From the IMG/VR virus record IMGVR_UViG_2734482784_000003: a stretch of DNA of 8,987 nucleotides; one strand, written 5' to 3'. The notes beneath the pieces are model-generated. The model saw only the letters and a program-made list of their open reading frames with translations. It searched no databases and was not told the DNA's origin. The DNA is from a virus (lineage: Duplodnaviria; Heunggongvirae; Uroviricota; Caudoviricetes). The position numbers and the translations under genes are program-made. Positions within the stretch are counted from its first letter, which is position 1; each line of letters opens with the position of its first letter. Of this stretch, positions 1 to 8,987 are shown piece after piece.

Positions 1-981
1 TTATAACGTCACTCCGCCTTTTAGTGGATTCAGAGCGACGGCATTTTGCAGATAGTCAGGCGCAAGGTGCGCATAGGCCATCGTCTGCTGAATGCTCGCA
101 TGTCCCAGAATCTGTTGCAGTGCGATTATATTGCCCCCATTCATCATGAAATGGCTTGCGAATGTATGCCGCAGGATGTGGGTTGCCTGATTGGGTGGTA
201 TATCAGGTTTCACTCTGCGTAAAATCCCGCAAAATTTCTCATAATCAACTTTGAATAATTTGGCGCTGGCCTCCTCTTTAACTTTTTTCTCCAGTTCCTC
301 AGAAATCGGCACGGTTCGCTTTTTACCGTTTTTGGTTTTCAGGAAGGTAACCCTGCAATTTGTAATCTGTGCTGGTTTTAGCGTGGCAACTTCCGTCCAT
401 CTTCCTCCAGTGCTCAGACATAAAAGCGCGACAAGTAAGTCATCACCAGCCAAAACATTTAACAGTTTTTCGATTTCTGCTTTTTCCAGGAACGTCATTT
501 CAGGGTTGGCCTCCGCCAGTGGCGGCAGTCCGTGAATTGGGTGTTGCCCGGAAAATTCATCCAATTGAATTAATTTTGTGAACATGCCGGATAATCGGTA
601 CATGTCACGGTTTATCGTTGCGGCACTGATACCATCACGTAGTCGCATGGAACGATAATCCATCAAAGCCCTTTTGCTCATCCTGCTCACTGGTATATCA
701 CCTATGCCGCTGATGGTTTTGAGTAGATGATTAAACTCTTTTGTTCCATGCTCGTGGTTTTGCCCGTGATATTTCCACCAGATGTCCAGCAACTCACTCA
801 AAGTCCGGCGGTCTGCTCGCTGGCCTCCCCATTCTTTCTGACTGGCATTGGCGATTGTGTATCGCTCAAATGCTAGTGCTTCAGCTTTTCTTTCGAATTT
901 CCTGCGGATGCGTTTTCCGTCGCGACCGCGAGGTCTAATGTCCACTTCATAGCGACCATCATCGAGCTTCTTAATTGCCAT
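1..981 (-). CDS. int: Tyrosine recombinase / phage integrase (P2 Int-like)
   Basis: Minus-strand ORF 1..1011. The protein from the second Met reads MAIKKLDDGRYEVDIRPRGRDGKRIRRKF, which matches my recollection of P2-family Int N-termini. The C-terminus carries a tyrosine-recombinase signature (HILRHTFASH ... LGH ... Y). Start placed at the ATG at 979-981 because a GGAGGG Shine-Dalgarno lies about 8 nt upstream on the minus strand; the ATG at 1009-1011 has no SD. The stop codon is bases 1-3. Confidence 0.9.
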   Translation of the reverse strand: MAIKKLDDGRYEVDIRPRGRDGKRIRRKFERKAEALAFERYTIANASQKEWGGQRADRRTLSELLDIWWKYHGQNHEHGTKEFNHLLKTISGIGDIPVSRMSKRALMDYRSMRLRDGISAATINRDMYRLSGMFTKLIQLDEFSGQHPIHGLPPLAEANPEMTFLEKAEIEKLLNVLAGDDLLVALLCLSTGGRWTEVATLKPAQITNCRVTFLKTKNGKKRTVPISEELEKKVKEEASAKLFKVDYEKFCGILRRVKPDIPPNQATHILRHTFASHFMMNGGNIIALQQILGHASIQQTMAYAHLAPDYLQNAVALNPLKGGVTL

Positions 982-1050
982 AAGAAAGCCCTCCGGCGCT
1001 GTATTCACCATCTTGGTAGCAAATGGTGAAAATGTAATCTTTATATAGAG

Positions 1051-1344
1051 TTAGCCAATCCTTTTCGCGGAGTGGTTGGACTCTGTTGACTCTGGCCCAA
1101 TGTGCGCGAGAGCCGGTGCGATTTGTCCTGCGTCCGGCGCGGTTTTATCTGTCATAAGCCATAGAGCATATTTTTGGAATGTGGGATGCATAGTGATTTT
1201 TAGCAAAGCTGTGCCACCGGGTTCAAAGTTTCCTCCTTCATATTTTTTAAGTGTGCTTAGCGGTAACTCTATGATTTCACAGAATTTTGATTGGCTTAGC
1301 CCTTCAGCCTCACGCAAGGCCTTAATCTTTTCGCTTAATTTCAT
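1051..1344 (-). CDS. C: Immunity repressor, P2 C-like (HTH, XRE-type)
   Basis: 97-aa minus-strand ORF directly upstream of int and divergent from cox. The N-terminal region (SEKIKALREAEGLSQSKFCEIIELPLSTLKKYEGG) looks like a helix-turn-helix; the C-terminal QIAPALAHIG...S.HS resembles the P2 C protein as I recall it. Size and position match P2 C. Confidence 0.85.
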   Translation of the reverse strand: MKLSEKIKALREAEGLSQSKFCEIIELPLSTLKKYEGGNFEPGGTALLKITMHPTFQKYALWLMTDKTAPDAGQIAPALAHIGPESTESNHSAKRIG

Positions 1345-1753: not shown

Positions 1754-1755
1754 TT

Positions 1756-1926
1756 ATGAATGAGCCGCGTTGTATTGCTCAGTTATTGCGTAACGAAAGC
1801 CCCAGGGCGATTGACTTCACCATCACCCACGGGAAGGGACGCAAGGGAATCATTATCCGCACCAAAAAACAGAGTCCGTTAAAAAAGGCTCTGACCTTTC
1901 TGAAAAGCCGGAGGGTCTGGAAATGA
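1756..1926 (+). CDS. Small basic hypothetical protein (same position as P2 orf78)
   Basis: ORF 1729..1926. The ATG at 1756 lies 2 nt after the cox stop (TGA 1751-1753) with a GGGG stretch upstream, suggesting translational coupling; the ATG at 1729 is an alternative start. Its stop overlaps the B start (ATGA at 1923-1926). Function unknown. Confidence 0.5.
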   Translation: MNEPRCIAQLLRNESPRAIDFTITHGKGRKGIIIRTKKQSPLKKALTFLKSRRVWK

Positions 1927-2423
1927 CAGTGATGACGCTCAATCTCGTTGAAAAACAGCCAGCAGCTATGCGCCGGATAATTGGCAAGCATCTTGCCGTC
2001 CCTCGCTGGCAGGATACATGTGATTATTATAATCAGATGATGGAACGCGAACGGCTAACGGTTTGCTTCCATGCGCAGTTAAAACAGCGTCACGCAACGA
2101 TGCGTTTTGAAGAAATGAACGACGTCGAACGTGAACGGCTGGTTTGTGCAATTGATGAATTGCGTGGGGCATTCTCAAAACGCCGTCAGGTTGGCGCAAG
2201 TGAGTATGCATATATTAGTTTTTTAACAGTCAGTCAGCGTCGTACTTTATTTATGCATGCCGGATTGACTGAAAAAGAATTCAACCAGCCATACTGGCGA
2301 ATTAATGAAGAATCATGTTACTGGCGTGATGCTTTATTCCGTGCATTACGTGAATTATTCAGCCTGTTTGAGTATGCACCGACAATTCTGACGTCGGTAA
2401 AACCAGAGCAATATCTGCATTAA
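1923..2423 (+). CDS. B: Replication protein B-like (P2 gpB, DnaB-helicase-loader-type accessory replication protein)
   Basis: 166-aa ORF with a GAGGG Shine-Dalgarno 7 nt upstream of the ATG. Its position after cox/orf78 and its length (P2 gpB is 166 aa as I recall) fit P2 B. The identification rests on synteny and size, not a verified alignment. Confidence 0.7.
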   Translation: MTVMTLNLVEKQPAAMRRIIGKHLAVPRWQDTCDYYNQMMERERLTVCFHAQLKQRHATMRFEEMNDVERERLVCAIDELRGAFSKRRQVGASEYAYISFLTVSQRRTLFMHAGLTEKEFNQPYWRINEESCYWRDALFRALRELFSLFEYAPTILTSVKPEQYLH

Positions 2424-2444
2424 ATAATTAACCAGAGTTTTTAA

Positions 2445-2472
2445 CGCACTTAATCGTGCGGGGCTTCTTTTT
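2445..2472 (+). terminator. Weak candidate intrinsic terminator / attenuator after B
   Basis: A 5-bp stem CGCAC(2445-2449)/GTGCG(2456-2460) with a 6-nt loop, followed by GGGCTTCTTTTT. The stem is short, so this is at most a partial terminator. Confidence 0.2.
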
Positions 2473-2486
2473 GCCTGGAGAAAGTC

Positions 2487-2711
2487 ATGCATACAGTTTC
2501 TGAAAACAAGTGCGGTAAATACGCATTACTGCTGCAACAGGCCAGAGCCGAAGCACAGGCCGACGCAGCGACACGCTTTTCTTCTCATCTTGACGCCATG
2601 ATTCGCCATATCACAAAGGCGGAGTTATCCCGCGTGGAGATAGTCGAGCTGCTCAGTCAGGAGTCGGAAAAATTTCACAATATCGGATTGTCTCGCGGGG
2701 AGGTGCTTTGA
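2487..2711 (+). CDS. Hypothetical early-operon protein (P2 orf80 position)
   Basis: 74-aa ORF with a GGAG Shine-Dalgarno 6 nt upstream. Its stop TGA overlaps the next gene's ATG (TGATG at 2709-2713). Codon usage is consistent with the neighbouring phage genes. Confidence 0.7.
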
Positions 2712-3010
2712 TGTCCTGTTCTCATTCAGTTGTATTACTGAATAACGCCTTAAAAATCGCCGTTATGAAAAATGGCGATTTGTCTCTTATTCAACTTTGC
2801 CTTGATAAAGAAAAACGCGACATAACTGAATCTGTTATCGCGATTTATCAGAATGAATTAAACCTCCTGTCTGATGTGGTCAATTTACTTGTTAAACGCG
2901 CTGTATTCCACAAGCAAATTTCCTCAGTGGATGAACTGACAAAATTAACGACAGAACTTGCCAGTTATTGCGCTGATGTATCCAGGCAACTTAACGATAA
3001 AAGGAGCTGA
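2711..3010 (+). CDS. Hypothetical early-operon protein (P2 orf81 position)
   Basis: The track ORF 2708..3010 begins at a TTG; the first ATG is at 2711, with a GGAGG Shine-Dalgarno 7 nt upstream and coupled to the previous stop. About 99 aa. Confidence 0.7.
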   Translation: MSCSHSVVLLNNALKIAVMKNGDLSLIQLCLDKEKRDITESVIAIYQNELNLLSDVVNLLVKRAVFHKQISSVDELTKLTTELASYCADVSRQLNDKRS

Positions 3011-3012
3011 TA

Positions 3013-3237
3013 ATGCCGGACAACGTAGATTTTATTCAGGAACAACAGGCTGAATTACTGGAGCGCCAGATTAACGCGGCAAGGGTAAAACATTGCGGTG
3101 CTTCTGCGCTGGTTTGCGAAGAGTGTGACGCGCCAATACCTGCAGCCCGTCGTGCGGCTTACCCGTCAGCCACGCGTTGTGTTTCCTGTCAGTCAGTCTT
3201 TGAAGCAAAAAACAAACATTACCGGAGAACGGCATGA
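3013..3237 (+). CDS. TraR/DksA-family C4 zinc-finger protein (P2 orf82 position)
   Basis: 74-aa ORF with an AAGGAG Shine-Dalgarno 6 nt upstream. The protein has CxxC-(17 residues)-CxxC (CEEC…CVSC) in a DksA/TraR-like context. Confidence 0.8.
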   Translation: MPDNVDFIQEQQAELLERQINAARVKHCGASALVCEECDAPIPAARRAAYPSATRCVSCQSVFEAKNKHYRRTA

Positions 3238-3509
3238 GTATTCGTATTGAAATTGGCGAACGTTATGTCGTTACCAGTGACAGCTTTCAGTTTATTCTCC
3301 ACGAGAAAAAGAGAGCGGAAAGCGGTAAAAACGCCGGTCAGGAATGGCTGGCGGTGGTTGGTTATTATCCGAAATTAAGCCAGCTCGTTTCCGGCCTGAT
3401 GCATCACGATATTCTGACCGGAAGCGCAAAGTCTTTTGCTGATTTAAACGCGCAGGTTGAGCAACTCAGCAAGCGTTGTTCAGAGGCTTTTGGCTCATAT
3501 GGCCGTTAA
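3234..3509 (+). CDS. Hypothetical early-operon protein (P2 orf83 position)
   Basis: 91-aa ORF. Its ATG overlaps the previous stop (ATGA at 3234-3237); GGAG upstream. Its 3' end overlaps the start of A by 11 nt. Confidence 0.7.
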   Translation: MSIRIEIGERYVVTSDSFQFILHEKKRAESGKNAGQEWLAVVGYYPKLSQLVSGLMHHDILTGSAKSFADLNAQVEQLSKRCSEAFGSYGR

Positions 3510-5778
3510 AGCCTCCGGGCGTTTTGTCCCTCCGTCAGCATTTTCCGCAGGCACCGGTAAGACGTTTGCCGGTGCTTATGCATGGAACGCGCCACGTGAG
3601 GCTGTCGGGCGCGAAAGACCCCTTACACGTGACGAGATGCGTCAGGTGCAAGGTGTTTTATCCACGATTAACCGCCTGCCTTACTTTTTGCGCTCGCTGT
3701 TTACTTCACGCTATGACTACATCCGGCGCAATAAAAGCCCGGTGCACGGGTTTTATTTCCTCATATCCACTTTTCAGCGTCGTTTATGGCCGCGCATTGA
3801 GCGTGTGAATCAGCGCCATGAAATGAACACCGAAGCGTCGATGCTGTTTCTGGCTGAGCGTGACCACTATGCGCGTCTGCCGGGGATGAATGACAAGGAG
3901 CTGAAAAAGTTTGCCGCCCGTATCTCATCGCAGCTTTTCATGATGTATGAGGAACTCTGCGATGCCTGGGTGGATGCGCATGGCGAAAAAGAATCGCTGT
4001 TTACGGATGAGGCGCAGGCGCATCTGTATGGTCATGTTGCTGGCGCTGCACGTGCTTTCAATATTTCCCCGCTTTACTGGAAAAAATACCGTAAAGGACA
4101 GATGACCACGAGGCAGGCATATTCTGCCATTGCCCGTCTGTTTAACGATGAGTGGTGGACTCATCAGCTTAAAGGCCAGCGTATGCGCTGGCATGAAGCG
4201 TTACTGATAGCTGTCGGGGAGGTCAATAAAGACCGTTCTCCTTATGCCAGTAAACACGCCATTCGTGATGTGCGTGCGCGCCGCCAGGCAAATCTGGAAT
4301 TTCTTAAATCGTGTGACCTTGAAAACAGGGAAACCGGCGAGCGCATCGACCTTATCAGTAAGGTGATGGGCAGTATTTCTAATCCTGAAATTCGCCGGAT
4401 GGAGCTGATGAACACCATTGACGGTATTGAGCGTTACGCCGCCGCAGAGGGTGATGTGGGGATGTTTATCACGCTGACCGCGCCGTCAAAGTATCACCCG
4501 ACACGTCAGGTCGGAAAAGGCGAAAGTAAAACCGTCCAGCTTAATCACGGCTGGAATGATGAGGCATTTAATCCAAAGGATGCGCAGCGTTATCTCTGCC
4601 GTATCTGGAGCCTGATGCGCACGGCATTCAAGGATAATGATTTACAGGCCTACGGTTTGCGTGTCGTTGAGCCACACCACGACGGAACGCCGCACTGGCA
4701 TATGATGCTTTTTTGTAATCCACGCCAGCGTAACCAGATTATTGAAATCATGCGTCGCTATGCGCTCAAAGAGGATGGCGACGAAAGAGGAGCCGCGCGA
4801 AACCGTTTTCAGGCAAAACACCTTAACCGGGGCGGTGCTGCGGGGTATATCGCGAAATACATCTCAAAAAACATCGATGGCTATGCACTGGATGGTCAGC
4901 TCGATAACGATACCGGCAGACCGCTGAAAGACACTGCTGCGGCTGTTACCGCATGGGCGTCAACGTGGCGCATCCCACAATTTAAAACGGTTGGTCTGCC
5001 GACAATGGGGGCTTACCGTGAACTACGCAAATTGCCTCGCGGCGTCAGCATTGCTGATGAGTTTGACGAGCGCGTCGAGGCTGCACGCGCCGCCGCAGAC
5101 AGTGGTGATTTTGCGTTGTATATCAGCGCGCAGGGTGGGGCAAATGTCCCGCGCGATTGTCAGACTGTCAGGGTCGCCCGTAGTCCGTCGGATGAAGTTA
5201 ACGAGTACGAGGAAGAAGTCGAGAGAGTGGTCGGCATTTACGCGCCGCATCTCGGCGCGCGTCATATTCATATCACCAGAACGACGGACTGGCGCATTGT
5301 GCCGAAAGTTCCGGTCGTGGAGCCTTTGACTTTAAAAAGCGGCATCGCCGCGCCTCGGAGTCCTGTCAATAACTGTGGAAAGCTCACCGGTGGTGATACT
5401 TCGTTACCGGCTCCCACACCTTCTGAGCACGCCGCAGCAGTGCTAAATCTGGTTGATGACGGTGTTATCGAATGGAATGACCCGGAGGTCGTGAGGGCGC
5501 TCAGGGGTGCATTAAAACACGGTCGGAGAACGCCAAGTCGTCAGCAAAGAAACGGAAGCCCGTTAAAACCACATGAAATTGCACCATCGGCCAGACTGAC
5601 CCGGTCTGAACGATTGCAAATCACCCGTATCCGTGTTGACCTTGCTCAAAACGGTATCAGGCCGCAGCGATGGGAGCTTGAGGCGTTAGTACGCGGTGCG
5701 ATCGTCAATTACAATGAAAAGCAATTTTCATATCCTAGTGTAGATGAGTGGAGTGGGTTTTCTGGTTATTCAGAGTAA
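3499..5778 (+). CDS. A: Replication initiation protein A (rolling-circle HUH endonuclease, P2 gpA-like)
   Basis: The track ORF 3457..5778 starts at a TTG; the first ATG at 3499 gives MAVKASGRFVPPSAF…, which matches the P2 gpA N-terminus as I recall it (about 760 aa). HUH motif HWH at 4693-4701 (…PHHDGTPHWHMMLF…) and a YxxKYxxK catalytic-tyrosine motif at 4846-4869 (YIAKYISK) support a rolling-circle initiator. Confidence 0.9.
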   Translation: MAVKASGRFVPPSAFSAGTGKTFAGAYAWNAPREAVGRERPLTRDEMRQVQGVLSTINRLPYFLRSLFTSRYDYIRRNKSPVHGFYFLISTFQRRLWPRIERVNQRHEMNTEASMLFLAERDHYARLPGMNDKELKKFAARISSQLFMMYEELCDAWVDAHGEKESLFTDEAQAHLYGHVAGAARAFNISPLYWKKYRKGQMTTRQAYSAIARLFNDEWWTHQLKGQRMRWHEALLIAVGEVNKDRSPYASKHAIRDVRARRQANLEFLKSCDLENRETGERIDLISKVMGSISNPEIRRMELMNTIDGIERYAAAEGDVGMFITLTAPSKYHPTRQVGKGESKTVQLNHGWNDEAFNPKDAQRYLCRIWSLMRTAFKDNDLQAYGLRVVEPHHDGTPHWHMMLFCNPRQRNQIIEIMRRYALKEDGDERGAARNRFQAKHLNRGGAAGYIAKYISKNIDGYALDGQLDNDTGRPLKDTAAAVTAWASTWRIPQFKTVGLPTMGAYRELRKLPRGVSIADEFDERVEAARAAADSGDFALYISAQGGANVPRDCQTVRVARSPSDEVNEYEEEVERVVGIYAPHLGARHIHITRTTDWRIVPKVPVVEPLTLKSGIAAPRSPVNNCGKLTGGDTSLPAPTPSEHAAAVLNLVDDGVIEWNDPEVVRALRGALKHGRRTPSRQQRNGSPLKPHEIAPSARLTRSERLQITRIRVDLAQNGIRPQRWELEALVRGAIVNYNEKQFSYPSVDEWSGFSGYSE

Positions 5779-5984
5779 TAAACATAATGTTTTAGATTGG
5801 TTGCATAATGGTAAGGTTGCTGTTTATCTGTATATGTTAATATGATTACGCTACGTACAAATAATCGACATTTCTTTTTTTCTATATATTAATATTGATG
5901 ATTTTACTGGTGGTACAATAAGTCTATGTTGAAATTCGAGAATTGTATTATTAACAATAAAAACTGGTTCTTTTTATTATACAA

Positions 5985-6012
5985 GGACCACCTCCTTAGG
6001 AGGTGGTCTTTT
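5985..6012 (+). terminator. Strong hairpin terminator between convergent A and the cargo gene
   Basis: 10-bp perfect GC-rich stem GACCACCTCC (5986-5995) / GGAGGTGGTC (5999-6008) with a 3-nt loop, followed by TTTTACTGTTT on the plus strand. It lies 6 nt from the stop codon (6018-6020) of the minus-strand cargo gene. The hairpin may act bidirectionally, but the U-tract is only clear on the plus strand. Confidence 0.6.
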
Positions 6013-6017
6013 ACTGT

Positions 6018-8501
6018 TTAACGAGGGTTTCGCGTATAGGTTTCAACTATGTCTGATGCACGTAATTTACATGTGATCAATTGTTCTCTTATAAATATCT
6101 CATCGTGTCGTTTATCACTTGTACAAATGGCCGTGATAAAACTGAGGATAGATGCTTTAAAACGTTCAAGATCATTTATGGTCATTATTCGAGACCCTTC
6201 GTTTAGTGTTGCGGCATATTCAGGCATGTTAGAGTGATGTATCATTATAGGTGTGGCGGTAGCAGTTTGATCATACATGTTTCTGAACCATGCACCCGAC
6301 CCATTTAACTGATTGCAGTCATGCTTACTTATTCTTTCTGCGGTTGCTCCATTTTTGCATTCAATTACTAGATAATTGTTTTCTCCCATTGCCCATAAAT
6401 TGTCAGGTCCTTTACCTGTATCATTTTCTGGCCGTTGGCTACGAAAACCGATCAAATATGCAACTTTTTCGATAGCATCTTCGAAGGGATTCGATGTGCC
6501 CTCGGAGAAAATAAGGTTTTCTATTATTGAATTAGTATGCACAACGACTTGATTCGCCGATTCAAAATTACTTCTGAGATAGGAGCTACATTCCCTGGCC
6601 TGTTCAAGTGCCGCACCATTAAGTCTATTATATGTTACGCCGATTAGTGGTTTTAATACCCGATAGTTATCGTTTGATGCAGACTGAAGCAATATCTGAG
6701 CTTCAGATTTGTCATATAAGTTTACATATTCCGCAGCATGTTCTTTTAGATAACCCTTATAAACTTTGTCAGCTGTACTACTATCATTTTTTAGAGTTAA
6801 AGCGGCTTGTTGAAACATATTTCGTGATGCGAAGTCATATGCCAATCTTTTGTTTATAGTATGCTGGTCAATCTGCTTATTTTCCAATGTTAAGCCAGTC
6901 AATATACCTTTGCTTTTTGAGACCCAGTCAGAATTGCGTAACAGACAATAATCAAGAGCACCTTTGATTGAATCAATAGTTGTATCCGGCAGTATCGATA
7001 CCAATTGCTGTGAAAGTTGAATTTGTGCTTTCGTTGCTGGAGAAAACCTTTCTAAGGAGGAGCCAAGGAAAACAGCGCCATTTAATGCTTTGCCAAGTAA
7101 GATCACTCCGCAGAAGTCGTCGCTTGATCTCACTCCTCGCCCCATTCCTTGTTCAATTTTCTGGATAATTTCATCTTTGGTTTTTTCGCTTCCAAGCAAT
7201 AAGCTTTGTGAGACTTTATCTATTAGTCTACGAACGTCAGGAAGTCCATCTATTACTAATAGACGACATGCGGTATTTGGTAAATCAATACCATCATATC
7301 TATTAACTAGGACTACTAAGCCAACATGTTGTGTCCTTAATTCTTGTACACCTTGATAAATTGTATTTTTATCTAATATTCTGTCTGCAACATCTTGCCA
7401 AAATCTAGTTCTGTAATCGGATGGTACAATTACAACAACATTATGTTTGGAGGATATCTCCTTGCACATAGCTTTGATATCTACATCAGAAAGACTAGGG
7501 TTTATAACCTGAGGCATTAGTATCATTCTATCACCAATATCACCAATTGTTTTTGGTGTTATCGGATTAGAGAGTGATTCATCCGTTATTCCGAAGTGGC
7601 TCGCTAGAATGGATTCATCGACAAGAGTAGCTGTCATGAATATTTTTCTTCTTGCGTTTGATAGGCTTGGGATCATTTGGATTGGTATGCAATGAGGTGA
7701 TATCTCTATTTTGGAAGCACTTACAACGCATTTCGATAATATTAGATTGTCTTTTATTAATGGCCATTTGAAACTCAAGTCATCATGGTCTTTATTTTCT
7801 AACAAGATTGTCATTATATCATTTATGCTTTCTTGCCATTTCCAAAATGGAACTCTCACATAAGCATTTCTATCGCCGGATTTTATCTCTAGTGTTTTTG
7901 CACCAGCTTGTGTCATTAGTGAATTTTCAAAAATTCTGAATAATTTATCATAGGCAGGGTTATTTTTTTGAATGCTAATGGAGAATTGTTCTTCAATTGA
8001 AGAAAGGCAAGCGTGAGCATCGTCAATTATTATAGAACCTATTGGTATTTTTTGTCCATCATCTCCAACGCCAAATGCAGAACGTCCATTAACCACTTTG
8101 AATATATTTGTAACTAAAATTTCTTTACCTGCAATAAATTTGGGGGACCTCTCATCTTGAGTTACAGGTATACCAAGTTGATTAGCCTCCAAAACCACTT
8201 GCTCAACTAGATAGTTGTCAGGAACAACATATACAGCGGGACCTTCTCCTTCATTTATACAGCTTTTAAGAATGATTAACCCAACTGAAGTTTTACCGCT
8301 TCCGGTATTCATTTTTATTACATTGGTTGGGCTTCTCCTTGCTTCATACCATTTTTCCCAGACCTCTGATTGCACATCTCGAGGGTATTGAAATTTGGTG
8401 TCTTTGCTCGGTAGAGCTGTAAATATATCTCGCGGTGGAATCGCTGTGTCGCTATTTACACTGGGCGAAAGCTTGGTTAAATCAAGGAAAAAACCAGACA
8501 T
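6018..8501 (-). CDS. Large SF2 helicase with C-terminal PD-(D/E)xK-like nuclease motif; candidate single-gene anti-phage defence protein in the P2 A-to-cos cargo hotspot
   Basis: 827-aa uninterrupted minus-strand ORF. AGAGGA Shine-Dalgarno 6 nt upstream of the ATG (8499-8501), with an in-frame stop two codons further upstream fixing the start. Motifs read directly: Walker A GSGKT (aa 67-71, nt 8289-8303), motif II IIIDDAH (DDAH at nt 8013-8024), motif III MTAT (nt about 7626-7634), motif VI QGMGRGVR (nt about 7128-7151), and C-terminal GPD…(13 aa)…IECK (D700, E714, K716; nt 6354-6407). The gene is markedly AT-rich: hand counts on a few 60-nt lines give roughly 28-38% G+C, against about 60% in one line of A. 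Confidence 0.85.
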   Translation of the reverse strand: MSGFFLDLTKLSPSVNSDTAIPPRDIFTALPSKDTKFQYPRDVQSEVWEKWYEARRSPTNVIKMNTGSGKTSVGLIILKSCINEGEGPAVYVVPDNYLVEQVVLEANQLGIPVTQDERSPKFIAGKEILVTNIFKVVNGRSAFGVGDDGQKIPIGSIIIDDAHACLSSIEEQFSISIQKNNPAYDKLFRIFENSLMTQAGAKTLEIKSGDRNAYVRVPFWKWQESINDIMTILLENKDHDDLSFKWPLIKDNLILSKCVVSASKIEISPHCIPIQMIPSLSNARRKIFMTATLVDESILASHFGITDESLSNPITPKTIGDIGDRMILMPQVINPSLSDVDIKAMCKEISSKHNVVVIVPSDYRTRFWQDVADRILDKNTIYQGVQELRTQHVGLVVLVNRYDGIDLPNTACRLLVIDGLPDVRRLIDKVSQSLLLGSEKTKDEIIQKIEQGMGRGVRSSDDFCGVILLGKALNGAVFLGSSLERFSPATKAQIQLSQQLVSILPDTTIDSIKGALDYCLLRNSDWVSKSKGILTGLTLENKQIDQHTINKRLAYDFASRNMFQQAALTLKNDSSTADKVYKGYLKEHAAEYVNLYDKSEAQILLQSASNDNYRVLKPLIGVTYNRLNGAALEQARECSSYLRSNFESANQVVVHTNSIIENLIFSEGTSNPFEDAIEKVAYLIGFRSQRPENDTGKGPDNLWAMGENNYLVIECKNGATAERISKHDCNQLNGSGAWFRNMYDQTATATPIMIHHSNMPEYAATLNEGSRIMTINDLERFKASILSFITAICTSDKRHDEIFIREQLITCKLRASDIVETYTRNPR

Positions 8502-8560
8502 TTTTTATCCTCTTACAGGTACATTAGTTTAATTGTTAACGCAGAATTATCATTACCATA

Positions 8561-8590
8561 ACTTGCATTAAGTTGCATTACATTGCATTC
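8561..8590. repeat. Three tandem 10-bp repeats containing TTGCATT (acTTGCATTA / agTTGCATTA / caTTGCATTC)
   Basis: Read directly: TTGCATT begins at 8563, 8573 and 8583, an exact 10-bp periodicity. The repeats lie 60-90 bp upstream of the cargo gene start, in its presumed promoter region, and about 95 bp before cos. Confidence 0.6.
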
Positions 8591-8624
8591 ATAAACGTTA
8601 GCTAGGGGCGAAGTCTGAGGTTTG

Positions 8625-8987
8625 ATGGGCTATGGTGTCCCCTTTAATACGAGGTTGCATCAAAACCGCCCCATGAAGCGGGCGGGCGAGGCGGGGAAAG
8701 CACTGCGCGCTGACGGTGGTGCTGATTTTATTTTTTCAGCGTCTGAGCGCGTCGTGAAGGCGTTTACTTGGCCTGCTGGGGCGTTGGTGTGGCCGGATTT
8801 CCTCGCATGGGATACGGTCACCAGTACCACCGCCACCGCGTATGCCACCGCCCGTGCGCTGGGTCTGCGCGCTAAAATCGACCAGGAGCAGGGCTGGCAT
8901 AAAACGCTGTCCAATGTTCTCCATCAGCCTGGCTACCGGTCGGGCAGATATTTACACGGAAACACCGGTCAAAGTGTCTGGCTTTAA
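8625..8987 (+). CDS. Hypothetical protein (doubtful ORF spanning the cos region)
   Basis: Track ORF 8622..8987 (TTG; first ATG at 8625, GAGG 4 nt upstream); its stop codon is the last 3 bases of the window. Codon usage in the 3' half looks E. coli-like. However, the 5' part overlaps cos and the conserved packaging region, which is non-coding in P2/P4, and in P2 the portal gene Q is expected on the opposite strand here. Low confidence. Confidence 0.3.
   Translation: MGYGVPFNTRLHQNRPMKRAGEAGKALRADGGADFIFSASERVVKAFTWPAGALVWPDFLAWDTVTSTTATAYATARALGLRAKIDQEQGWHKTLSNVLHQPGYRSGRYLHGNTGQSVWL
8685..8703 (+). other. Phage cohesive-end site (cos), P2/P4 type
   Basis: GGCGAGGCGGGGAAAGCAC matches the 19-nt P2/P4 cohesive-end sequence as I remember it. 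The following roughly 50 bp (TGCGCGCTGACGGTGGTGCTGATT.TATTTTTTCAGCGTCT.AGCGCGTCGTGA) also closely matches my recollection of the P2/P4 genome left end. This was not verified by alignment. Confidence 0.6.

Follow-up and report, generated by a model that had tools for sequence, protein, structure and literature searches.

The closest described system is Hna ('helicase-nuclease abortive infection'), a family reportedly founded by Sather et al. in Cell Host Microbe in 2023 on the pSymA plasmid of Sinorhizobium meliloti, in a study that is said to have also tested an E. coli Hna. Structures of Hna are available (9YHN, 9YKJ, and 10UJ; Hooper et al. 2026, PMC13381803). [quoted passage not shown] The characterised Hna lacks DNA-unwinding activity, and binding of ATP keeps its exonuclease restrained (PMC13381803). 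The substitutions R36A/Q39A in SmHna abolish the ATPase and increase the nuclease activity 15-fold, whereas the exonuclease is lost in K729A and reduced in the PDE mutant (PMC13381803). The residues T30, D31, and P34 from a loop of the HEL1 domain of SmHna form an ATP-dependent autoinhibitory dimer interface and compete with SSB. According to the Hna paper, the protein has no Fe-S cluster. The efficacy of Hna in S. meliloti is strongly dose-dependent (PMC12445080). The published signature of the family is the combination of ResIII and Helicase_C_2 in a protein of about 830 aa (PMC11232893).

The interval between gene A and cos of phage P2 is a documented defence hotspot (PMC9122126; PMC9519451). 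In the P2 annotation, the interval is filled by orf91, tin, and old, and the position is a non-essential lysogenic-conversion slot. The window, which is the whole analysed stretch of 8,987 nucleotides, contains the following features at this position:

5779..8655, no strand assigned: low-GC cargo island at the P2 orf91/tin/old hotspot (blastn against P2, GC content, P2 annotation)
6018..8501, minus strand: hna coding sequence, 827 aa and stop codon, encoding an Hna-family SF2 ATPase with a PD-(D/E)xK nuclease
8685..8703, plus strand: cos cohesive end, identical to that of P2 (exact 19-nt match GGCGAGGCGGGGAAAGCAC; P2 cosL/cosR annotation)

Homology to P2 detected by blastn stops at position 5711 and starts again at 8656. 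The gene at 3457..5778 on the plus strand is a homolog of P2 gene A (Pfam Phage_GPA, 1.8e-123), and the region of this homolog has 96.9% DNA identity to P2 26290-30246 (blastn). The number of cos matches expected by chance is 0.01. The presence of the gene A homolog on one side and of the exact P2 cos on the other corroborates the hotspot location given in the original prediction. The GC content is 0.367 for the island (5779-8655) compared to 0.529 for gene A, and the base composition of the island is foreign. Intact E. coli prophages have the same gene order of A, hna, cos, and portal. From about position 8790 on, the window passes into pieces of the P2 genes FI and D, and not into the portal gene as in the intact prophages, so that this end may reflect either a prophage remnant with a deletion or a chimeric assembly.

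The ORF at 6018..8501 on the minus strand starts with ATG and encodes 827 aa, and the RefSeq annotation of near-identical prophages uses the same frame and the same length. Both the ORF and all the motifs previously listed for it are real, each motif being located at the residue given: GSGKT at 67-71 (K70), DDAH at 160-163, TAT at 290, QGMGRGVR at 451-458, and PD-x13-ExK at P699/D700 and E714/K716. The island does not contain a partner gene, and the flanks of hna hold only ORFs of at most 45 aa. No conserved neighbour of the homologs was found in the islands of P. aeruginosa and Pectobacterium, where, as on plasmids, the neighbours differ completely. The predicted single-gene status is thus upheld by the lack of a partner ORF in the island and of a conserved neighbour around the homologs.

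The intergenic sequences on the two sides of hna contain three putative regulatory elements:

5983..6011, plus strand: GC-rich hairpin of 13 bp in the intergenic space where genes A and hna converge, terminator-like on the plus strand, 7 nt past the hna stop codon
8508..8514, minus strand: Shine-Dalgarno-like AAGAGGA, 6 nt upstream of the ATG, read from the sequence
8563..8589, minus strand: three AATGCAA repeats with exact 10-bp spacing, upstream of hna and beside a GATAAT -10-like hexamer

It is possible that the AATGCAA repeats are a promoter or operator. A scan of the 184 bp between hna and cos for consensus sigma-70 promoters gave no candidate, and the count of promoter-like sites in the region is no higher than in shuffled sequence. 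A search of the whole window against Rfam identified no RNA family. Given the dose dependence of Hna in S. meliloti, effective expression from the prophage is putative.

The gene is present in about 70 of 5,426 complete E. coli genomes (about 1.3%), or in about 70 of the ~2,560 E. coli genomes with a cos region of the P2 type. Many Salmonella also have the gene. It is absent from P2 and from all 50,697 deposited phage genomes, with the exception of one Salmonella chromosomal contig at 30% identity. Homologs are carried on plasmids and integrative islands of many phyla. It could be argued that the gene encodes a DinG-like helicase for replication, recombination, or repair that serves the life cycle of the P2-like phage itself rather than defence, since it adjoins the replication gene A, the protein has a DinG/XPD-like fold, and PHROGs sets the helicase core near 'DNA helicase' families. 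However, we consider such a role very improbable, given the absence of the gene from P2 and from the other phages, its occurrence in a small part of the E. coli genomes with P2-type cos regions, its foreign GC content, the homologs on plasmids and integrative islands, the non-essential lysogenic-conversion position, and a homolog that lacks unwinding activity. A phage replication helicase and a DinG-like repair enzyme were both rejected on these grounds.

The protein WP_000012516, which occupies the same position between gene A and the portal gene, is identical to the window protein in 824 of 827 residues (99.6%). WP_000012516 is the lone cargo in 13 entries of the P2-hotspot table published by Rousset et al. 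2022, where the proteins recorded as lone 'ResIII/DEAD' cargo are WP_000012516 and WP_021570163. The possibility that the gene is an undescribed variant, which had been raised in the original prediction, is not supported. The 'ResIII/DEAD' cargo was catalogued by Pfam domains only, without a name, and it is not listed among the tested constructs in supplementary file 3 of Rousset et al. 2022. Hna is absent from the main text of a 2026 NAR survey that covers the hotspots of P2 and P4 (PMC13586616), and none of the P2-hotspot systems reported by Vassallo et al. 2022 is described as a helicase-nuclease. The labels given to the protein so far are 'DEAD/DEAH box helicase family protein' in RefSeq and 'unknown function' in PHROGs.

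The placement of the window protein in the Hna family is unambiguous. A phmmer search against the Hna chains of 9yhn, 9ykj, and 10uj aligned residues 60-792 of the window protein to residues 62-806 (E 4.7e-121), and BLASTP against the pSymA-encoded S. meliloti Hna gave 32% identity over 751 aa (E 2e-129). The PADLOC profile PDLC04986 (PDC-S28) matches the window protein with E=0 and 1055.7 bits, residues 6-825 aligning to profile positions 2-826 of 831. The S. meliloti founder of Hna matches the same profile end to end with 1020 bits, and PDC-S28 therefore denotes, as a computationally derived label, the Hna-containing family; at the family level there is no difference between it and the window protein. 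The Pfam matches are ResIII (8.7e-10, aa 40-168) and Helicase_C_2 (aa 400-471), and a search against NCBIfam returned nothing over the cut-offs. About 4,000 homologs of the window protein were found at E<=1e-5, which is beyond chance. The AlphaFold2 model of the window protein has a pLDDT of 83, and its best PDB match in Foldseek is 'Hna Monomer' 9yhn (E 1e-60, TM 0.67-0.68 over 832 columns), followed by XPD, DinG, and CasDinG with E of about 1e-12. The profile searches and the structure prediction with Foldseek had been proposed as checks together with the prediction; the former gave the end-to-end match to PDC-S28 and the two Pfam domains, and in the latter the C-terminal region aligns to the NUC domain of SmHna. 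The earlier view that the protein could not be placed in a named family is superseded, as it is a full-length member of Hna, the same family as PDC-S28. The resemblance to Hna-type proteins, mentioned there in passing, is now a family match by PADLOC, phmmer, BLASTP, and Foldseek, and this strong homology also backs the call of a defence system.

The original prediction had also likened the protein to orphan type III Res subunits. The pairing of an SF2 core and a PD-(D/E)xK motif at the C-terminus is also found in type III Res proteins. A Res subunit, or a different helicase-nuclease of the restriction type that cleaves incoming DNA lacking modification, would be consistent with the Pfam ResIII match (8.7e-10) and with a weak NCBIfam match to a dnd restriction enzyme (23 bits compared to the cut-off of 600). 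However, the island has no methyltransferase or other partner gene, and a modification-independent enzyme without Mod would cut the host chromosome. No restriction-enzyme model of PADLOC or NCBIfam scored above noise for the window protein; PADLOC gave only a match to a model of a Type II methyltransferase (E 0.0068), which is much weaker than that to PDC-S28. The structural neighbours that follow Hna are XPD, DinG, and CasDinG, not Res. An identity as a restriction enzyme thus has next to no likelihood, and that of type III Res was rejected because a Mod gene is lacking, the fold resembles XPD/DinG, and the match to Pfam ResIII covers the generic helicase core only.

The domain and motif layout of the Hna-family protein encoded in the window is as follows:

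8384..8411, minus strand: N-terminal loop before the Q-motif, about aa 31-40 'PSKDTKFQYP' (mapped by alignment to the SmHna loop)
8370..8381, minus strand: Q-motif residues R41..Q44, counterparts of the ATP-coordinating R36/Q39 of S. meliloti
8289..8303, minus strand: Walker A GSGKT, aa 67-71 (G67, G69, K70, and T71 invariant)
8013..8024, minus strand: motif II DDAH, aa 160-163 (D160, D161, and H163 invariant)
7128..7151, minus strand: motif VI QGMGRGVR, aa 451-458, inside the Pfam Helicase_C_2 match at aa 400-471
6117..6509, minus strand: C-terminal PD-(D/E)xK nuclease (NUC) domain, about aa 665-795, which aligns with the cryo-EM NUC domain of SmHna
6354..6407, minus strand: nuclease motif P699-D700-x13-E714-x-K716, counterparts of P712/D713/E727/K729 of SmHna

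The proposed architecture of an SF2 ATPase core followed by a C-terminal PD-(D/E)xK nuclease is borne out by the profile and fold matches. The residues R41/Q44, K70, D160/D161/H163, Q451, G454, R455, R458, and D700/E714/K716 are invariant across both sub-clades of Hna in all three alignments (A1, A2, and A3); R41/Q44 align to R36/Q39 of SmHna and were recorded as invariant in A1 and A3. For P699, invariance is complete in A3 and almost complete in A1 and A2, and G452 and M453 show full or near invariance depending on the alignment. As judged from the aligned sequences, every experimentally tested catalytic residue of Hna is conserved in the window protein.

Taken together, the gene is a member of Hna, a previously described family of anti-phage defences that consist of one protein, and is located in a known hotspot; it is real but ordinary. 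It is very probable that the gene is an Hna member that forms the only cargo of the A-to-cos hotspot and acts as Hna does. The window protein is most likely an ATP-restrained 3'-5' ssDNA exonuclease that would be released by a phage protein such as SSB, resulting in abortive infection. In an uninfected lysogen, the protein would be bound to ATP and its nuclease repressed, as in the homodimer of S. meliloti Hna. [quoted passage not shown] The PD-(D/E)xK domain (D700/E714/K716) would then processively degrade ssDNA in the 3'->5' direction. Because both the replicating phage DNA and the host DNA would be damaged, the cell would die or arrest without releasing phage. The beneficiaries would be the prophage and sibling lysogens, in parallel to the old and tin genes that P2 carries in this slot. 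The SF2 core would serve as an ATP-binding and hydrolysing regulatory switch and not as an unwinding helicase. The name 'helicase' used in the original prediction is probably a misnomer, because unwinding of DNA is not an activity of the characterised Hna, in which bound ATP restrains the exonuclease (PMC13381803).

The Hna family separates into two sub-clades, with identities of 27-31% between them and 45-80% within each. The window protein, about 30-32% identical to the biochemically characterised S. meliloti Hna, belongs to the other sub-clade, which includes enterobacterial, Pseudomonas, Legionella, and cyanobacterial members. The dimer/SSB loop T30/D31/P34 of SmHna is not matched in the window protein by alignment: T30 corresponds to K33, D31 to D34, and P34 to K36, with an additional three-residue 'FQY' insertion. 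Conservation of the TDKGP-type loop is confined to the S. meliloti clade; the clade of the window protein has its own loop motif 'LP-xK..KFxYPRDVQ', invariant within the clade, as are K33 and Y39. The N-terminal loop of the model has a pLDDT of about 56, i.e. it is flexible. Because the SmHna dimer loop is replaced in the window protein, dimer autoinhibition and SSB sensing are extrapolations for it, and the distinct sub-clade and different loop mean that we infer its trigger and regulation.

It is possible, but doubtful, that the window protein is an Hna-family defence protein with workings other than those of S. meliloti Hna, its N-terminal loop sensing a phage factor other than an SSB of the T7 gp2.5 type, or its regulation depending on another assembly. 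The protein might even act directly on phage DNA and not by abortive infection. Such divergence is suggested by the separation into two sub-clades, by the replacement of the conserved dimer/SSB loop residues of the S. meliloti clade with another invariant motif, and by the expectation of the Hna authors that orthologs differ in phage-factor recognition. However, the catalytic and ATP-binding residues are all conserved, the overall fold is shared, and a sequence change in a flexible loop is no proof of changed function. Furthermore, a secondary source (PMC10732053) reports activation by SSB for Hna proteins 'from S. meliloti and E. coli'. For the sub-clade as a whole, it is likewise possible, but doubtful, that the clade-specific invariant loop, which would take the place of the dimerisation/SSB-competition loop, responds to another phage cue or supports a restraining assembly different from that of the ATP-dimer/SSB model.

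The family and the hotspot location of this gene are already known, and the significance of the assignment is modest. It provides a functional name, Hna, for a gene of about 1.3% of complete E. coli genomes and of many Salmonella, and adds Hna to the named systems of the P2 A-to-cos hotspot. The point of scientific value is the N-terminal regulatory loop that differs between the Hna sub-clades. The P2-borne E. coli protein would be well suited to address the generality of the autoinhibition/SSB-trigger mechanism, as E. coli genetics and both the T-phage and BASEL collections could be used.

Like the window protein, Hachiman HamAB, Nhi, and AbpAB link a nuclease effector to a sensor that resembles a helicase, and phage SSB has been implicated in triggering them. 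In contrast, Hachiman and AbpAB are two-gene systems, and Nhi is an SF1 protein with another nuclease arrangement; none of the PADLOC models for the three systems scores on the window protein. XPD, DinG, CasDinG (Csf4), and ExoDinG share with it the two-RecA-lobe Rad3-type core with Helicase_C_2 (E of about 1e-12 in Foldseek), and the window protein also matches the PADLOC model typeIV_DinG (2.5e-12). The identity to XPD/DinG-type SF2 proteins is 10-15%, and the resemblance is limited to the core, with TM of about 0.35. Unlike XPD and DinG, the window protein does not have the 4-Cys Fe-S domain (HD1 insert) or its cysteine positions, the sole cysteine between Walker A and motif II being C81, at a variable position. 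ExoDinG is similar to Hna in being a 3'-5' ssDNA exonuclease without DNA unwinding, but its exonuclease is an N-terminal DnaQ-like domain, whereas the nuclease of the window protein is the C-terminal PD-(D/E)xK domain.

P2 Old and Tin occupy the same slot, have the same minus-strand orientation away from cos, and share the anti-phage role in lysogenic conversion; Old is, according to the P2 annotation, also an ATPase-linked exonuclease. However, there is no sequence relationship to either protein and no PADLOC match to Old, which is an ABC-ATPase and TOPRIM protein. S. meliloti Hna differs from the window protein in its sub-clade (30-32% identity), in its loop, which is three residues shorter, in a seven-residue insertion before Walker A that is absent from the window protein, and in its location on a symbiotic megaplasmid rather than in a P2 prophage hotspot. 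Nevertheless, both are mobile-element-borne single-gene systems of about 830-845 aa with the domain order HEL1-HEL2-NUC. They have the Q-motif R/Q, Walker A, DDAH, and motif VI, the conserved PD...ExK residues, and no Fe-S cluster cysteines, they match the same PADLOC HMM with >1000 bits, and Hna is the best structural match of the window protein.

The 827-aa product of hna is a recognisable member of the already named and structurally solved Hna family, and not the unplaced variant that the original prediction had allowed for. Pfam detects only generic helicase parts in it (ResIII 40–168, DEAD, and Helicase_C_2 400–471); the PADLOC model PDC-S28 (PDLC04986) matches it end to end (E=0, 1055.7 bits). 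A sequence search of the PDB yielded one strong relative, an 845-aa protein titled 'Helicase ATP-binding domain-containing protein', in entries 10UJ, 9YHN, and 9YKJ (E 4.7e-121, residues 60–792 of the window protein aligned to 62–806). The entries 9YHN and 9YKJ are Sinorhizobium meliloti Hna solved by cryo-EM (Hooper et al., Nat Commun 2026, PMC13381803), and the sequence of 10UJ is identical to theirs. The founding gene, taken from pSymA (L002:2815–5352), encodes a protein 32% identical to the window protein over 751 residues (BLASTP, E 2e-129). Because the founder also matches the PDC-S28 model, with 1020 bits, PDC-S28 and Hna denote a single family. The window protein agrees with the published Hna signature of ResIII and Helicase_C_2 in about 840 aa (PMC11232893).

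An AlphaFold2 model of the window protein, calculated with 35 homologs (pLDDT 83.1), has as its best PDB match the 'Hna Monomer' 9yhn (Foldseek E 1e-60, TM 0.67), followed by both Hna dimer chains and then by XPD, DinG, and CasDinG at about 1e-12. The proposed resemblance to Hna thus holds in both sequence and predicted fold. The predicted C-terminal nuclease is borne out; in the model, D700 begins the second strand, and E714 and K716 close the third. The other suggested resemblance, to an orphan type III Res subunit, is in practice excluded: the island has no Mod gene, the match is limited to the generic helicase core, and the closest folds of the predicted model are XPD/DinG rather than Res.

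The motifs GSGKT (67–71), DDAH (160–163), TAT (290), QGMGRGVR (451–458), and P699/D700-x13-E714-x-K716 are located at the residues originally assigned to them. In residue alignments with S. meliloti Hna and homologs of five phyla, R41, Q44, K70, D160/D161/H163, Q451, G454, R455, R458, and D700/E714/K716 are invariant throughout, and P699, G452, and M453 are invariant in part of the alignments and nearly so in others. Conserved residues of the window protein align with residues of S. meliloti Hna tested experimentally. Mutation of R36/Q39 removes the ATPase activity and raises the nuclease activity 15-fold, mutation of P712/D713/E727 lowers the nuclease activity, and mutation of K729 abolishes it (PMC13381803). 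Between Walker A and motif II there is a single, variable cysteine; an XPD/DinG-type Fe-S cluster is absent, as reported for Hna.

The window covers the early part of a P2-like prophage, with the following features.

1–1011, minus strand: integrase
1051–1344, minus strand: HTH repressor
1466–1753: cox
gpB homolog (no Pfam family; recognised by its 96.9% DNA identity to P2)
Early region, before gene A: DUF2732, DUF5405, DksA/TraR zinc finger, second DUF5405
3457–5778: replication gene A (Pfam Phage_GPA, 1.8e-123)
6018–8501, minus strand: hna, 827 aa, sole large ORF between gene A and cos
8685–8703: cohesive end (cos), 19 nt, exact P2 copy
8685–8790: match to P2 1–107
8790–8917: interior of tail-sheath gene FI (P2 18216–18343, 99.2%)
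8916–8987: interior of gene D (P2 23750–23821)

With gene A and an exact cos both located, hna is confirmed in the A-to-cos cargo position, which in P2 itself is occupied by orf91, tin, and old (P2 annotation). The 2.9 kb island has a GC content of 0.367, compared with 0.529 in gene A, and no ORF in its flanks exceeds 45 aa, in line with the prediction that hna lacks a partner gene. Positions 1755–5711 are 96.9% identical in DNA to P2 26290–30246. This homology ends 67 nt short of the end of gene A, which places the hotspot's left recombination boundary within the 3' end of A; the final ~20 residues of the A protein read ...VNYNEKQFSYPSVDEWSGFSGYSE in the window and ...VNYDGKKFTYPVADEWPGFSTVMEWT in P2. 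The integrase/repressor/cox module (1–1754) is not of P2 type: the integrase gene has only patchy 70–80% DNA similarity to P2, and none was found over C or cox. The phage is P2-like with other immunity and integration specificity. In E. coli WP2-W18-CRE-03, a near-identical prophage is inserted beside cpxP.

Intact prophages have the gene order A, hna, cos, portal, whereas the right end of the window (8790–8987) does not run on from cos into portal gene Q. The double junction of cos, FI, and D is shared by no complete E. coli genome. The right end reflects either extensive deletion, leaving a prophage remnant with int-A-hna-cos, or a chimera produced in assembly. At exactly 128 bp, the FI piece has a length equal to k+1 for an assembler with k=127.

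The three AATGCAA repeats with exact 10-bp phasing (8563–8589, minus strand), ~60–90 nt upstream of the hna start and just 5' of the -10-like hexamer GATAAT, could be an operator or promoter element; a consensus promoter scan called nothing there. Between the convergent A and hna, a strong 13-bp hairpin with seven GC pairs (5983–6011), 7 nt past the hna stop codon and with a T-tract on the plus strand only, may end both transcripts.

About 4,000 homologs were found at E<=1e-5. An identical protein is encoded on 156 contigs, and its 90% cluster takes in Salmonella members on at least 1,000. Among 5,426 complete E. coli genomes, about 2,560 have some match to a P2-type cos region and 70 carry the island. 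The position of hna in the P2 hotspot is already catalogued: the P2-hotspot table of Rousset et al. 2022 lists the M10 allele WP_000012516 (824/827 identical) 13 times, as 'ResIII/DEAD' cargo on its own. The allele is absent from the tested constructs given in supplementary file 3. In PHROGs the product is phrog_16128, 'unknown function'.

The protein is unlikely to be a helicase for phage replication or repair, given the patchy occurrence of hna among P2-like prophages, its foreign GC content, and its wide distribution on non-phage mobile elements. P2 lacks the gene, and so do all deposited phage genomes (tblastn, 50,697 records), the sole match being a Salmonella contig at 30% identity. Plasmid-borne homologs are all less than 60% identical to the window protein. 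Distant homologs reside in unrelated mobile contexts, including a P. aeruginosa integrase/RepC element, various plasmids, and a Pectobacterium integrase island that adjoins Lamassu-like genes. No neighbour is common to these loci, which fits a self-sufficient single-gene module. On three contigs (loci L005 4894–5535; L007 399–1040 (Pectobacterium); L006 4888–5535), the Pectobacterium hna, which is 80% identical, is directly preceded by an ORF of 213–215 aa with no Pfam match; this ORF is missing from the P2 island. On Rhizobium sp. NLR16a plasmid p2 (L011 1–2075), a gene pair for an AAA ATPase and a UvrD-helicase, which looks like Gabija, directly precedes an hna of the S. meliloti clade, an arrangement that agrees with the reported association of Hna with defence islands.

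Homology to Hna and the end-to-end PDC-S28 match make the defence interpretation sound. The S. meliloti protein is a processive, Mg2+/Mn2+-dependent 3'-5' ssDNA exonuclease that does not unwind DNA (PMC13381803). ATP binding favours a HEL1-mediated homodimer with a disordered, inactive nuclease domain; at the dimer interface, competition from the T7-gp2.5-like SSB of phage 5A frees the nuclease activity even with ATP present. The protein owes its toxicity to this activity, and the outcome is abortive infection (PMC13381803). According to a secondary source, SSB activation has been reported for S. meliloti and E. coli Hna (PMC10732053). By analogy with these homologs, the window protein would be held in ATP-restrained surveillance in the lysogen until a superinfecting phage supplied a replication protein that activates it, leading to K716-dependent ssDNA degradation and then abortive infection. 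No early-region ORF of the window belongs to an SSB Pfam family, which would help the prophage not to trigger its own system.

The Hna family has at least two sub-clades, with 27–31% identity between them. The S. meliloti clade, sampled from Rhizobium, a Pseudomonas plasmid, Niallia, and Spirosoma (45–64% identity within), has the N-terminal loop 'LDRx(T/S)(D/E)KGPL-RxxQ'. The window's clade, sampled from Pectobacterium, Rouxiella, Methylophilaceae, cyanobacteria, P. aeruginosa, and Legionella (50–80%), has 'LP-xK..KFxYPRDVQ', which is three residues longer. The loop segment is flexible in the model of the window protein (pLDDT about 56). Since the loops differ between the clades, the mechanism is least secure at two steps, autoinhibition through the dimer and what the trigger is. 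That the trigger or the regulation is specific to the clade is a tentative reading, rather doubtful at present. The dimer interface loop T30/D31/P34 of S. meliloti Hna (Hooper et al., PMC13381803) corresponds to K33, D34, and K36 of the window protein; it is kept in the S. meliloti clade only, whereas the window's clade has its own invariant motif, a difference that leaves membership of the Hna family unaffected.
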